From a virus (Duplodnaviria; Heunggongvirae; Uroviricota; Caudoviricetes), in IMG/VR virus record IMGVR_UViG_2529292922_000010: a stretch of DNA of 64,000 nucleotides, one strand, 5' to 3'. Positions 24,218 through 48,706 of this stretch are shown in pieces. Below the pieces are notes generated by a model, which saw only the letters and a list, made by a program, of their open reading frames with translations, did no database searches and had not been told where the DNA came from. Positions within the stretch are counted from its first letter, which is position 1. The number at the start of each line of letters is the position of its first letter. A program made the position numbers and the translations under genes.

Positions 24218-24293
24218 TGGTGGCCCCTACCGGACTTGAACCGGTGACCGTGCGATTATGAGTCGCCAGCTCTAACCACTGAGCTAAAGGGCC
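24218..24293 (-). tRNA. tRNA-Ile (anticodon CAU, lysidine type); Met reading not excluded
   Basis: 76-nt cloverleaf ending CCA, anticodon loop CUCAUAA; very similar in form to E. coli ileX. Confidence 0.75.
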
Positions 24294-26293: not shown

Positions 26294-26369
26294 TGGTGCC
26301 GATTAACGGACTCGAACCGCTGACATCCTGCTTACAAGGCAGGCGCTCTACCAACTGAGCTAAACCGGC
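26294..26369 (-). tRNA. tRNA-Thr (anticodon UGU)
   Basis: 76 nt, canonical acceptor/D/T arms, ends CCA. Confidence 0.8.
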
Positions 26370-26371
26370 AT

Positions 26372-26447
26372 TGGCGATGGTGGATGGATTTGAACCATCG
26401 ACCCGTTGATTAACAGTCAACCGCTCTAACCGCTGAGCTACACCATC
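26372..26447 (-). tRNA. tRNA-Asn (anticodon GUU)
   Basis: 76 nt, 7-bp acceptor stem, ends CCA; 2 nt upstream of tRNA-Thr. Confidence 0.8.
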
Positions 26448-43374: not shown

Positions 43375-43530
43375 TTACCTTTCAGATTCGTAGGCTGTGA
43401 AGACAGTGACCTCCGTCTGGCCGGTTCGGATTCGTACCTCGCAGAGGTCTTTCCTCGTTACCAGTGCCGTCACAATGACGGTTAAACAGATGACGATCAG
43501 AGCGATTAACATCGCTTTTTGCTGCTTCAT
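43375..43530 (-). CDS. hok: Hok/Gef-family type I toxin
   Basis: 51 aa MKQQKAMLIALIVICLTVIVTALVTRKDLCEVRIRTGQTEVTVFTAYESER; AAGGAG RBS; overlapping mok-like frame 43382..43588. Confidence 0.85.
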   Translation of the reverse strand: MKQQKAMLIALIVICLTVIVTALVTRKDLCEVRIRTGQTEVTVFTAYESER

Positions 43531-43711
43531 AGCCTGCTTCTCCTTGACCTTTTGGTCGGTAAGAGGCTAATCTACGTATGCTAAGCATAGATGTGGCCTC
43601 AGATTAATGTTAAGCGTCTTGCAGGACGCGTAATGTTATCTGGGGCTTTCTTCTATCTGCTTTTCGGGTAATGCCTGAAGCAGATAGCCTCAAGCACCCG
43701 CAACGATTGTA

Positions 43712-44007: not shown

Positions 44008-44853
44008 TCACCCTCTAAATCCTGCCGGTATACCCCATTGTTCGTTATCTTTATTTTTGGCTAAAACCGCATTAAGAGCTTCGTTTACCGTCATGCAATG
44101 CGGCAAATTATCGAAGTTTGATACCCCGCCAATATCAGGAGAACGCTTGTTCTTCAGGTAAGCATATTTCCGCGCTGCCGCCTCTACTTTCTGCTTGAAC
44201 TCATGTTTTTGAGCGCGTTTTTTGGATAACCGCAGATTGTCAGCCTTTGCTTTTGCCTCGGCGATCCATGAAGTCAGTTTTTTGAGGCTGGTCGTTTCGG
44301 CACCGCCGGAAACTGATCTTTTTGTTTTTTTAATTTGTGACTTCTTATTCTTTATTGCCACGTCATCCTGACAGGGGGAGGGGGTATCATTTTGACATGG
44401 GGGTGTGGATAAAAAATTAAATAAAGCCAATGTCTTAGCGAGAACAGCTTTAACCTTGGTTGCCGCTGAAGAGATCTTTAATTTGCTTTCAATCAGCGCA
44501 TTTTTGGCTTGTTGTGCGAAGGCCAAAAAGGATGGTGTAAACCGGTACAGGTTAGCGCGACGTTCACGGTGATCGCCGATAACAATCTCTACAGACAGGA
44601 TTCCTTTGTTTACAGCTTCACGGAATGCACGAACGACGGTTGATTGGCTATAACCAGTTTCTGCCGCGATCAGGCGGTGAGGCTTGTGAATGAAGTATTC
44701 ACTGGTTGTTGCCGCGAGATTTGCACATTGCGACAGGATATGCCCGGCGCTACGGGATAGACCGGAGTGTGTTACAAAGCAGGCCAATTCATAGCCAGAA
44801 AAAGTAAAATCGCTCATCGTTATACAGCTCAGGAAAGTGACTTTAGCCAGCAT
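44008..44853 (-). CDS. repL: RepL-like lytic replication protein
   Basis: 281 aa; last gene of the kilA operon as in P1; HTH-like N-terminal region; start uncertain. Confidence 0.55.
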   Translation of the reverse strand: MLAKVTFLSCITMSDFTFSGYELACFVTHSGLSRSAGHILSQCANLAATTSEYFIHKPHRLIAAETGYSQSTVVRAFREAVNKGILSVEIVIGDHRERRANLYRFTPSFLAFAQQAKNALIESKLKISSAATKVKAVLAKTLALFNFLSTPPCQNDTPSPCQDDVAIKNKKSQIKKTKRSVSGGAETTSLKKLTSWIAEAKAKADNLRLSKKRAQKHEFKQKVEAAARKYAYLKNKRSPDIGGVSNFDNLPHCMTVNEALNAVLAKNKDNEQWGIPAGFRG

Positions 44854-44882: not shown

Positions 44883-45683
44883 TTAGCGCGTTGCCGCGAC
44901 AGGTACCAGCACACCAGCATCAAGCAATCGCTTCATCAGCCACTGCTGACCTTTGCCGGTTATACGAGTCGTGAAAGAAATCCTGCTTCCATTGCTTGTA
45001 TCGATCACGGTTTCTTTAAGGGTGAAATACCCACGGGATATGTATTCTTGTTTGGGGACGTTCCTGCGTTCACCGGTTGCGATCAGAATTCCGTTATCAC
45101 GCAACCAGGTGAAGAGATAGTTTTGGCCCAGGCCGAGCACTTTGGCATAGTTGCCGATTAGAACCCCGCTGGCGGTAGCAACGCGTTCGGCGAATTCGAC
45201 TTTAGGTGCATCCATAAGCATTTTTTGCTCCAGCCGTTGCTTTTGCTCTGCCAGGTCGGCAGCCAAACGGAGAGCTTCAGGGAGACTCTGCGGAATAGCA
45301 GGTTGTAATCTTCCGGCTCGATAGTCGATAAATGTCTGGTTTACCTTCAGCCGAAACGCGGGAGAAATCCAGCCTGCGTACTCCACAGCGAGCAATTCAT
45401 GGGCAAAAGTGCCGCCGCCACGGCCTTCGAACGAAACTATGCAATTCTGCATAGTTTCTTTTTCAAGCTCTTCGATGAGCTGTTTTGCTGACAGCGTTCT
45501 TAGCCATTGAGCTGGCGCTTTATGGGCACCGAGTCCGCTCGCTCTGTGTAGAGCATTAAGGTTGTAACGGCCAGCGCGGTCGGTCGTAATTTCAACACCA
45601 CAAATAACGGGCAGAGTGGTTGAAGGATCGACATTTTGATGAAGGTTTGATATATTCATATCCGCATTGAATGTTTGTTGCAT
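44883..45683 (-). CDS. kilA: KilA (KilA-N domain protein)
   Basis: 266 aa; KilA-N-type N-terminus; C-terminal domain near-duplicate of ant C-terminus. Confidence 0.75.
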   Translation of the reverse strand: MQQTFNADMNISNLHQNVDPSTTLPVICGVEITTDRAGRYNLNALHRASGLGAHKAPAQWLRTLSAKQLIEELEKETMQNCIVSFEGRGGGTFAHELLAVEYAGWISPAFRLKVNQTFIDYRAGRLQPAIPQSLPEALRLAADLAEQKQRLEQKMLMDAPKVEFAERVATASGVLIGNYAKVLGLGQNYLFTWLRDNGILIATGERRNVPKQEYISRGYFTLKETVIDTSNGSRISFTTRITGKGQQWLMKRLLDAGVLVPVAATR

Positions 45684-45847: not shown

Positions 45848-46885
45848 TTAACCTATTGCTACTGGTTTTAACAAACCAGCATCAAGTAGCTTGCGAGTTA
45901 ACCACTGCTGGCCTTTACCCGTTAATTGGGGCGTCAGCCGTATCTGGTAGCCATTTTCATCATCCAGCACCACTTCTTTCACCGTGAAATACCCGGCGTT
46001 GATGTACTGTTGGCGCGGTACGTTTTTGCGCGCACCAAAAGCCATGAGAATGCCGTTCTGGCGCAACCATGAGAAAAGGGCGTTTTGCTTAAGTCCAACG
46101 ACCTTTGCAAAGTTCCCGATCAGGATTCCATTAGCCACTGATACCCGGTCGGCAAAATCGACTTTAGGGGCTGCGGCCACCAGCTGTTGTTCCAGCTGCA
46201 TTTTCTGTTCTGCCAACTCGGCAGCCAGGCGTAGAGCTTCTGGTAATGTTTGGGGGATCGATGGGGCAGGGGAGTTTGTCTGCTGCAATTCTTCCAGTTT
46301 GTCGATCAGCGAACGGCGGACCGCTTTTGACTCGCGCGCGGCGACTCGCAGGGCTTGTTTGAAAGTCATGGTTATGACAAGCATTGATGTTTTGTTCATT
46401 TTTTCCACTACACTTTTTGTGTAGTGCTCACCATCAAGCTCATCGAGTATTTTTTCGATGAATTTGTTGTTCCGAACCTCTGGTTCCCCACATAACTTAC
46501 GCGCTTCATTGACCATCTTTAACAGTGTCAGGCTGTCGATTGTGTCTCCGGTGTTGGAGATAACATTCACTGCTGGTGATGGCGTAGCTGAAGCAACAGG
46601 TGCTGGTTTTTCAACATTCAAATTATTACCGGTCATTCTGCGCGCCTCCTTTCTCATTTCTGCTGCCACTGTTGCGTAACGTAGACGTCCTTGTTCAATC
46701 AAATAATCCCTGATCTCGGCTATCAGTAGCCTGTTGATCACAGCCTTATCTGTTCGGGTATAAAAACGTCTGGTTATCATGAAATAGTTGGCAATTGCGC
46801 CGGGGATCTCCCGTGTCGGCATACAGGTTGTATGCAAAGCGATCGCTTCGGCTATTTCATTACGGGTGACGAGAGGTGTTTTCAT
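45848..46885 (-). CDS. ant: Antirepressor with KilA-C/Bro-C-like C-terminal domain
   Basis: 345 aa; C-terminal ~130 aa parallels KilA (ALRLAAELAEQK...GKGQQWL). Confidence 0.75.
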   Translation of the reverse strand: MKTPLVTRNEIAEAIALHTTCMPTREIPGAIANYFMITRRFYTRTDKAVINRLLIAEIRDYLIEQGRLRYATVAAEMRKEARRMTGNNLNVEKPAPVASATPSPAVNVISNTGDTIDSLTLLKMVNEARKLCGEPEVRNNKFIEKILDELDGEHYTKSVVEKMNKTSMLVITMTFKQALRVAARESKAVRRSLIDKLEELQQTNSPAPSIPQTLPEALRLAAELAEQKMQLEQQLVAAAPKVDFADRVSVANGILIGNFAKVVGLKQNALFSWLRQNGILMAFGARKNVPRQQYINAGYFTVKEVVLDDENGYQIRLTPQLTGKGQQWLTRKLLDAGLLKPVAIG

Positions 46886-47103
46886 AAACCCCCCTGAACG
46901 TTGGCAGAGAAGGGGAGGCTCCAGTAACTAAGTGAATTGCGCGAGTCAGTTGAAAAACGGGCAGTAAAAATGCAGGGGCCATCAGGCAATTGAGAGCGTG
47001 CTTCGTCTTCAGTTGCTGCGATAACGAAGTGATAGTGGTGTTTTTTACAGGAATAGAAACGCCAGATGAATTCTGGGCGTGCGCAAGGATTGGCATTAAC
47101 CAT
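46882..47103 (-). CDS. icd: Icd-like small protein of immI operon
   Basis: 73 aa; stop overlaps ant start. Confidence 0.5.
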   Translation of the reverse strand: MVNANPCARPEFIWRFYSCKKHHYHFVIAATEDEARSQLPDGPCIFTARFSTDSRNSLSYWSLPFSANVQGGL

Positions 47104-47417
47104 AGTTACGGCCTCACAATCAGGTTTAACAACCTGCTACCCGCTGCTAAACAGGTGGCAGGACGTGACGGGGTTAGCAGACTGGCGATTGTGAAACCAG
47201 CAGGCCGAAGCCTCCCCATCACGCCCCACCATAATTTGGGCGTAACGCGGTTTTACGGACACAAAAATACCGCAATATCGGATATCTGCGGCTGTCCGCA
47301 CAATCATTCAGGCTGCTAAACCCGGTCGCAGAATTTGCTACGACGGCGGAACTATAAGCCTGAACGATTAAAAGGTCAATATGATGCGAAAAGATAGCAT
47401 TCGCGACTTAAAAATAC

Positions 47418-47434
47418 AAATCTATTAGAGCATT
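47418..47434 (-). promoter_or_regulatory. C1-repressor operator-like site at head of immI region
   Basis: Minus strand AATGCTCTAATAGATTT (15/17). Confidence 0.5.
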
Positions 47435-47530: not shown

Positions 47531-48178
47531 ATGAGAAAACTATTACTACCGTTATTATTTATGGCTGGGACTGTTAATGCAGCATCAAGCGTAAAGGAGA
47601 TTTGTACCGATTATACGAAATACCTTGGGCACGTTTACGGCTTTGCTGTCAGTCAAGACGAATCCATGCGCAAGAAGTTACTGTCAGATATGAAACGCCT
47701 TAAACTTTCTGAAGCGATGGTGCAGCAAGAACTGTATAAAGTCGCAACCAACGAAAATGCTAAATATCAATATTCTCGCCTGTTAAATCCCGACGCAAAC
47801 GAGATCAATCGAAGCTCTTTCGATTATATGGTAAAGGCATGCGAAACCGCTCCTGATTTTGCTATTCCTAGCTGGGGTGTGCTGGTGGCGAGCAATGCCG
47901 TTAATAAAGAAGACGTTGGAAGAAATGGCATTGATTCAATCAGAAACTCACCGGGAATGCGCCATCAAAACGTTCAGGGTACGCTTGAAGAACGGGCCAG
48001 GGGGCCGGGTACAAACTCCCCAATGGGAAACCTCTCCCCGGAGGAATTGCAAGAGTATAACCAACGGATGGAGCAGTATGAGAAAGCTGCACGCGAAAAA
48101 ATGGAACAACAAAAAAACGGATCTCTTAATACTTTCCAGCAAGGTTTAAAAGCGCTTAATTTACCCTATGAATGGTGA
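47531..48178 (+). CDS. Secreted protein, 215 aa
   Basis: ATG 47531 with GGTGAGG RBS; signal peptide MRKLLLPLLFMAGTVNA; shares a motif with Sit. Confidence 0.5.
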   Translation: MRKLLLPLLFMAGTVNAASSVKEICTDYTKYLGHVYGFAVSQDESMRKKLLSDMKRLKLSEAMVQQELYKVATNENAKYQYSRLLNPDANEINRSSFDYMVKACETAPDFAIPSWGVLVASNAVNKEDVGRNGIDSIRNSPGMRHQNVQGTLEERARGPGTNSPMGNLSPEELQEYNQRMEQYEKAAREKMEQQKNGSLNTFQQGLKALNLPYEW

Positions 48179-48229
48179 ATATATGGTGGTTAACTAATTA
48201 AAATATTAATATCCAAAGGAGATAAATTA

Positions 48230-48706
48230 ATGCGCATCAAACGATTTTTACTAGTTATTGCTTTGCTTACTCCGTTTTCATCAATGGCAAATGTAAGCAA
48301 ATGGTCAACCGGCGAGACTCATGGTGTTCGTTCTTATGCTGTTTCCAGCAAAGATAATTATACGCTTACATTTGAGTGCGATGTTGGATTTAATAATACG
48401 GATCCCAATCAAGTAGGAACACGACTACTCACTCTCATGAAAACAGAACCTGGCGGTGAGTCATTTGATGCTAAAAAAGAACAAATAACGCTGAAAGTTG
48501 GTGATGATGAATATCCTATCAGTTCTATCGGTTCCTCTGTGGGTGATAGTTACTGGTATGGTTTTTGGTCAGATACCCCTGATATGGAAGTTAAAACATT
48601 CGATGCATACGTAGACGGAAAAAAAATCGCAACATTTACGCTACGTAAGGCCGCAGAGCTTTTCAACGCGGCACCTGAAGATGGCTGCCTGAAGCGCGCA
48701 AAATGA
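48230..48706 (+). CDS. Secreted protein, 158 aa
   Basis: Signal peptide MRIKRFLLVIALLTPFSSMA; AAGGAG RBS. Confidence 0.5.
   Translation: MRIKRFLLVIALLTPFSSMANVSKWSTGETHGVRSYAVSSKDNYTLTFECDVGFNNTDPNQVGTRLLTLMKTEPGGESFDAKKEQITLKVGDDEYPISSIGSSVGDSYWYGFWSDTPDMEVKTFDAYVDGKKIATFTLRKAAELFNAAPEDGCLKRAK

Follow-up and report, generated by a model that had tools for sequence, protein, structure and literature searches.

A c4 antisense RNA gene of the P7 type in the immI leader of a P1-like phage-plasmid

The locus analysed here raises the question of what is encoded by a leader of some 300 bp that lies ahead of icd-like and ant genes and holds no long open reading frame. We examined a window of 64,000 nucleotides of viral DNA (IMG/VR record IMGVR_UViG_2529292922_000010), in which this leader occupies 331 nt at positions 47104-47434 and is read on the minus strand. 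A first-pass annotation, made from the letters alone, had described the leader in these terms and had proposed that it probably encodes an antisense RNA of the C4 type. The description holds: the leader contains mechanical open reading frames only (two on the minus strand, of 56 and 38 aa, and one of 109 aa on the plus strand), and family models confirm the identity of the genes that follow it. The proposal is also supported, and we conclude that the leader almost certainly encodes the P7 specificity variant of c4, as part of the immunity operon immI in a P1-like phage-plasmid (Punavirus). The feature is an already described gene, present as a copy identical to that of P7, and there is nothing new in the gene itself; the mildly new material is a by-product only, namely the modular a'/b' address repertoire of P1-like elements.

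Over the 521 bases around c4, the window matches Escherichia phage vB_EcoM-Ro157c2YLVW (Punavirus) and several E. coli plasmids, some 95 kb in size, at 100% identity. Over this stretch identity is 95% with phage P1 and, from the operator onward, 98.8% with phage P7. In PLSDB, 599 plasmid records give a match. Of 5426 complete E. coli genomes, 536 (about 10%) carry the leader, taken as a 341-nt segment, and 656 of the 665 places at which it occurs there are on plasmids. Given the identities to Punavirus, P1 and P7 and the plasmid location of the leader, the window is therefore, judged by its sequence, a P1-like phage-plasmid.

Layout of the immI operon and its control region

The leader stands in the context of a canonical immI operon, which runs from a C1 operator and two promoters through c4, icd and ant1/ant2 to kilA and repL. 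The features outside c4 and its pairing sites are as follows.

47434..47418, minus strand: predicted C1 repressor operator AATGCTCTAATAGATTT, equivalent of P1 Oc4 (former Op51)
47420..47391, minus strand: predicted promoter equivalent to P1 P2c4 (P51a), with -35 TTTGTAT at 47420..47414 and -10 TATCTT at 47396..47391, overlapping the operator
47379..47351, minus strand: predicted promoter equivalent to P1 P1c4 (P51b), TTGACC-17-TATAGT
47103..46882, minus strand: icd, 73 aa, first gene under predicted C4 control; NCBIfam NF033153 Icd-like, 52.3 bits
46885..45848, minus strand: ant1, 345 aa; Pfam ANT/KilAC PF03374, 106 bits
45753-45769, minus strand: C1 operator-like site TTTGCTCTAATAAATTT, upstream of kilA, one mismatch to the consensus, corresponding to P1 Op53/OrepL
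45683..44883, minus strand: kilA, 266 aa, with KilA-N and KilAC domains
44853..44008, minus strand: repL-sized open reading frame, 281 aa, in the same gene order as in P1 and P7
718, 10921, 13014, 13063, 16687, 27106, 27117 and 30798: eight further operator-like sites, scattered in the window

An operator-like site does head the leader, as had been suggested. Apart from a single A->G change it aligns with Oc4 as annotated in P1; it is thus one mismatch away from P1 Oc4/Op51 and two away from the C1 operator consensus ATTGCTCTAATAAATTT. Shuffles lead one to expect 0.29 C1-operator-like sites in the window, and ten occur. The A->G change, at operator position 13, is rare, occurring in 3 of the 71 copies with a recognised operator, a count that includes both the window and the identical phage record; the change may affect how C1 controls the upstream promoter. 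Both promoters have annotated counterparts in P1: the P51a hexamers are identical to those of the NC_005856 annotation and fall in the same register in the alignment, and P51b, which gives 10 of 12 matches in a promoter scan, is identical to the annotated P1 hexamers.

Downstream, Icd shares 69 of 73 residues with P1 Icd and the same number with P7 Icd, and Ant1 shares 321 of 345 with P1 Ant1 and 310 of 345 with P7 Ant1. The ant1 start overlaps the icd stop in the sequence ATGA. An in-frame internal start for ant2 lies at 46636, with AGGAGG ahead of it, 249 nt into ant1 and at the same offset as P1 ant2.

Several other features of the window were recorded alongside the operon. Upstream of the operator, 47531-48706 on the plus strand carries two divergently oriented open reading frames with signal-peptide-like N-termini, one of 215 aa (phrog_3933) and one of 158 aa (phrog_3429). 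A Pfam PTPlike_phytase match to an upstream frame was ignored, at 26.6 against a cutoff of 27. The first 88 nt or so beside the operator match the end of P1 simA at 95%. Shortly downstream of the repL-sized frame, at 43375-43699 on the minus strand, is a toxin-antitoxin module of the hok/sok type, in which 43699..43525 (minus strand) matches the sok model of Rfam (RF01794) with 114.8 bits and a Hok-like frame of 51 aa, beginning MKQQKAMLIALIVICLTVIVTALVTRKDLCEVRIRTGQTEV, occupies 43530..43375 (minus strand). Three tRNA genes, for Met (CAT anticodon), Thr (TGT) and Asn (GTT), lie on the minus strand at 24218-24293, 26294-26369 and 26372-26447.

The c4 gene, its fold and its pairing sites

Within the leader we locate the gene, a conserved upstream motif, two recognition elements in the RNA and four target sites, all on the minus strand.

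47230..47154, minus strand: c4 gene, 77-nt C4 antisense RNA of the P7 specificity type, 100% identical to P7 c4 (AF503408, 51057-51133)
47357..47305, minus strand: c4-a1b1 leader motif (RF03163; gathering score 46.7), matched with 55.5 bits and E = 2.7e-11
47194..47187, minus strand: b' element UCACAAUC (C4 nt 37-44), which the second hairpin presents in its 9-nt loop, unpaired in the minimum free energy (MFE) and centroid structures, complementary to b1 and b2
47180..47174, minus strand: a' element CUGCUAA, in a single-stranded junction (C4 nt 51-57), unpaired in the MFE structure, complementary to a1 and a2
47319..47313, minus strand: predicted a1 target UUAGCAG, exact complement of C4 nt 51-57, aligning to the annotated P1 a1
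47305..47299, minus strand: predicted b1 target GAUUGUG, exact complement of C4 nt 38-44, aligning to the annotated P1 b1
47150..47144, minus strand: predicted a2 target UUAGCAG, 4 nt past the C4 3' end, aligning to the annotated P1 a2
47121..47114, minus strand: predicted b2 target GAUUGUGA, overlapping the icd Shine-Dalgarno sequence and aligning to P1 b2, annotated as "repression of icd ant translation"

The check put forward in the first-pass annotation, a search by Infernal with the C4 model of Rfam, is positive. The RF01695 match, at 47236..47151 on the minus strand, reaches 69.6 bits where 45 is the gathering score (E = 1.7e-11); it spans the full model (1-87 of 87) without truncation, and no non-canonical pairs are flagged. 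Upstream of c4, the RF03163 match encloses a1, and b1 begins at its 3' edge. The exact ends of the RNA had been said to be beyond fixing by eye, and none were given; they are set here by identity with the annotated P7 c4, at 47230 and 47154, and the length of about 77 nt that had been suggested equals that of the annotated P1 and P7 genes.

The 77-mer has a predicted MFE of -44.9 kcal/mol (z = -5.7), and none of 200 shuffles was equally stable. Its MFE and centroid structures are one and the same, consisting of a long closing stem and two hairpins, as in the RF01695 family, with a UUCG-type tetraloop on the first hairpin and a 3' ACC tail left beyond the closing stem. The same C4 domain forms when the 251-nt leader is folded as a whole. 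Because the stems vary little among the close relatives sampled, support for this fold comes from the Rfam model and from energy rather than from new stem covariation. As some records have two places per record, a second copy of c4 was sought in the window; there was none, with one Rfam match, one pattern match and only the self-match by blastn.

In NC_050153, the record of the identical phage, c4 is apparently unannotated and the Icd-like protein alone lies under the match; among the matches listed for RefSeq E. coli plasmids, likewise, the Icd-like protein is shown and a c4 RNA gene is not. The unannotated c4 nevertheless scores above the Rfam gathering threshold.

The complementarity from which the first-pass annotation had argued is real. 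In the minus-strand transcript, TCACAATC at 47194..47187 falls within the span then indicated (47185-47200), and its complement GATTGTGA at 47121..47114 within 47105-47125. The latter was correctly placed in the ribosome-binding region of icd, since it overlaps the GAGG Shine-Dalgarno sequence at 47115..47112 (minus strand), which lies 8 nt ahead of the icd ATG (47103..47101). The analogy to P1 C4 was also apt, since the P1 reference record annotates the very pair that had been spotted, as the b'/b2 interaction. What had been missed are the a' element, its a2 target and the upstream duplicate targets a1 and b1. The exact matches extend over 7 nt for a'/a2 and 8 nt for b'/b2. The cognate b'/b2 duplex is predicted at -15.1 kcal/mol, and P1 x P7 cross pairs at about -9.8 kcal/mol; these weaker modelled cross duplexes are consistent with heteroimmunity. 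Even the P1 record gives the role of a1 and b1 as "putative".

Two further sites of complementarity were considered and set aside. The sequence AGCCUCCCC (46920..46912, minus strand), about 27 nt before the ant1 start, is a perfect 9-nt complement of C4 nt 14-22, which lie in a stem. Chance alone would supply roughly 0.15 matches of this kind (some 566 target positions x 69 C4 positions / 4^9, an approximate reckoning), and the complementarity is probably fortuitous. A second a-like site, GGGUAGCAG (47140..47132, minus strand), was picked by duplexfold; it is invariant between P1 and P7 and therefore does not covary with a', and it was not adopted.

Covariation across related loci and the rival explanations

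We scanned IMG/VR with a pattern in which the stems were fixed and the loops left free, after checking the pattern on the window itself, and retrieved at least 120 loci. The scored set comprises 118 c4 copies with enough flanking sequence, drawn from these loci and from phage records; the loci are mutually related, and the pattern demanded conserved flanks. Among the 118 copies are eight b' cores and two a' cores, which combine in 13 ways. Every one of the 118 has a1, b1, a2 and b2 sites that complement its a' or b' exactly over 7 nt, and the complement of another b' type was found in none of 826 cross checks. Despite the kinship of the loci, such repeated three-way compensation at short sites cannot, from the sequences compared, be explained without pairing. 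The P7-type address of the window is the commonest among the sampled loci (29 of 118).

An Icd homologue follows in 108 of the 109 copies with at least 400 nt of downstream sequence, and in all but two of these (106 of 108) its start lies 50-52 nt beyond c4. An Ant homologue is next in 88 of the 109, and other cargo in the remaining 21.

Some IMG/VR contigs (within loci L006-L125; for example L017/L082, L020/L058 and L061/L069) carry two c4 copies, and in both pairs whose types were read the b' types differ. Two c4-icd modules in one element have been reported for a D6-like plasmid (PMC6799933). Phages D6 and SJ46 show new types in which a third b' is joined to the P1 or the P7 a'. In this comparison, the C4 recognition elements of P1-like phage-plasmids behave as a modular two-part address, with at least eight b' loops and two a' junctions in at least 13 combinations. 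It is possible, though on balance doubtful, that this repertoire is still uncharted; immI immunity groups could then become predictable from sequence alone, and the element in the window would be a recombinant that joins a P7-type address to a P1-like Ant and a rare operator variant. We found no published catalogue of the a'/b' repertoire in the literature searched, though part of the ground may be covered by a 2018 Virology paper on phage D6.

Three other accounts of the leader have to be weighed against a functional c4 RNA gene. One is that c4 encodes a small repressor protein, from either the 56-aa frame at 47307..47137 or the 38-aa frame at 47222..47106, both on the minus strand; these frames do exist mechanically, and c4 is to this day entered as a CDS in X15639, an old P1 record. 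The 56-aa frame, however, is not conserved, with no ATG at the equivalent place in 16 of 56 distinct leaders and lengths of 29 to 74 aa in the others, and P1 carries a 1-nt deletion in it relative to the window, which shifts the frame. Moreover, variation is concentrated in a' and b' and mirrored at the four non-coding targets, which is the signature of RNA-RNA pairing. In P1/P7, a stop codon in the c4 open reading frame that leaves a', b' and the stems intact has been reported to leave immunity in place. Because the frame is unconserved and shifted in P1, and because the variation obeys RNA pairing, we exclude a C4 protein, and would give it hardly any probability. The published conclusion of Citron & Schuster (1990), as PMC8198154 cites it, also assigns the c4 repressors to the antisense RNAs. 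Still less probable is that the leader is a plain 5' untranslated region and its 8-mer complementarity a coincidence. About 2% of random 30-mers from the window (411 of 20000) contain eight consecutive bases that complement the 77-nt RNA at one place or another, so that this complementarity, taken alone, is suggestive and not decisive. It becomes conclusive because of the a'/a2 pair, the duplication of the targets at a1 and b1, the covariance-model matches and the loop-target covariation in relatives. Two independent models match above their gathering scores, two element/target pairs are each present twice, and three-way covariation is perfect over 13 specificity combinations; with the model matches and the covariation in hand, chance is excluded.

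The account with most left to it, though still a very improbable one, accepts a genuine c4 and supposes that this copy is silent or decayed, as in a defective prophage or through an altered operator or promoter. The rare A->G substitution in the operator would fit such a history, as would the fact that many P1-like plasmids are rearranged (PMC6906374). Against it, the bases from 47401 to the icd start codon are identical to those of functional P7, the icd-ant-kilA-repL frames are intact, and the identical 521-nt segment is carried by an isolated phage, vB_EcoM-Ro157c2YLVW, and by many plasmids. We consider a silent copy unlikely because of the identity to functional P7 and the intact operon, and we retain the reading of the leader as a P7-type c4 locus that is probably functional.

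Proposed mode of action and comparison with known systems

We propose a mechanism that builds on the sequence, fold, complementarity, covariation and operon layout described above, and on published work on P7 (identical in c4) and P1 (near-identical), from which we infer C4 processing, action in trans and the coupling of transcription to translation. Two sigma-70 promoters, the upstream one overlapped by the C1 repressor operator, would produce one minus-strand RNA that carries the leader, c4, icd and ant1/ant2. The 77-nt C4 (47230..47154) would be cut from the leader, with its 5' end made by RNase P as for the identical P7 sequence, and would fold into a long closing stem bearing two hairpins. 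Its b' element, in a hairpin loop, and its a' element, in the junction, are predicted to pair with b2 and a2 just downstream in the mRNA of the same operon, where b2 covers the icd ribosome-binding site. Translation of icd would thereby be blocked, and that of ant, which appears translationally coupled to it through the ATGA overlap, would be shut off too. With no Ant antirepressor made, the C1 repressor would stay active and the prophage would remain lysogenic and immune. In this scheme, the identity of a' and b' would set the immunity group.

In P1/P7, loss of icd translation is reported to lead to premature termination of transcription before ant. Expression of ant needs icd expression (P1 record note; PMC8201110). 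C4 antisense RNA is described as required for full repression of ant in PMC8198154 and PMC8201110, both citing Citron & Schuster (1990, Cell 62:591), and the P1/P7 C4 precursor as a substrate of RNase P in Hartmann et al. (1995, PNAS 92:5822), as cited in PMC4919922. Repression of icd and ant in trans, and immI immunity itself, we infer for the window from its identity to P7 c4 and from this literature (PMC8198154, PMC6906374). The heteroimmunity of P1 and P7 has been traced to minor differences in immI (PMC6906374). The a'/b' sequence predicts the P7 immI immunity group for the element in the window, and hence homoimmunity with P7, but heteroimmunity with P1, at immI. C4 is a textbook case of a processed, co-transcribed antisense RNA controlling an antirepressor, and the present copy, identical to that of P7, matters little beyond correct annotation.

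The closest known system is that of P7 (AF503408 / NC_050152), in which a1, b1, a2, b2, P51b, the P51a -10 and the icd ribosome-binding site are identical to those of the window and the operon order is the same; every base is equal from position 47401, so that the P51a -10 is included, to the icd start codon. The differences from P7 are confined in this region to the A->G change in the operator and one more base between the operator and the P51a -10. Elsewhere, the Ant1 of the window is closer to that of P1 than to that of P7, and the genes upstream of the operator differ in all three elements, with upf50.0/upf50.5 in P7, simABC in P1 and the two secreted-looking open reading frames in the window.

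P1 c4 (NC_005856, 48343-48419) has 72 of 77 bases in common with the window and shares its length, fold, position, promoters, operator and mechanism. The five bases that differ comprise two in b' (CACUAAC in P1, CACAAUC in the window), two in a' (CUGUCAA in P1, CUGCUAA in the window) and one in a stem, C in P1 and U in the window, where pairing is kept as G-C or G-U. P1 carries compensating changes at all four targets, and these joint changes in a', b' and their targets imply a different, heteroimmune immI specificity. At every specificity position in the alignment the window equals P7 and differs from P1, which places it in the P7 type.

The c4 genes of D6 and SJ46 (Rfam RF01695, clan CL00128) score similarly with the C4 model (69.6 and 70.8 bits) and share the c4-a1b1 motif. 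Both have CGUAAGU as the b' loop, combined with a P1-type a' in D6 and a P7-type a' in SJ46, and the downstream cargo of D6 is annotated as a Roi-like antirepressor, not as Ant1/2.

A more distant parallel is the sar RNA of the immI region of Salmonella phage P22, likewise a small RNA of a secondary immunity region that blocks translation of ant mRNA at the ribosome-binding site. We know of no sequence or structural relationship between sar and C4, and the two reach their target differently. Whereas sar is encoded on the opposite strand across the ant start and is a true cis-antisense RNA, C4 precedes its target on one strand and in one transcript, from which it is freed by processing, and it pairs by means of two short loop elements.
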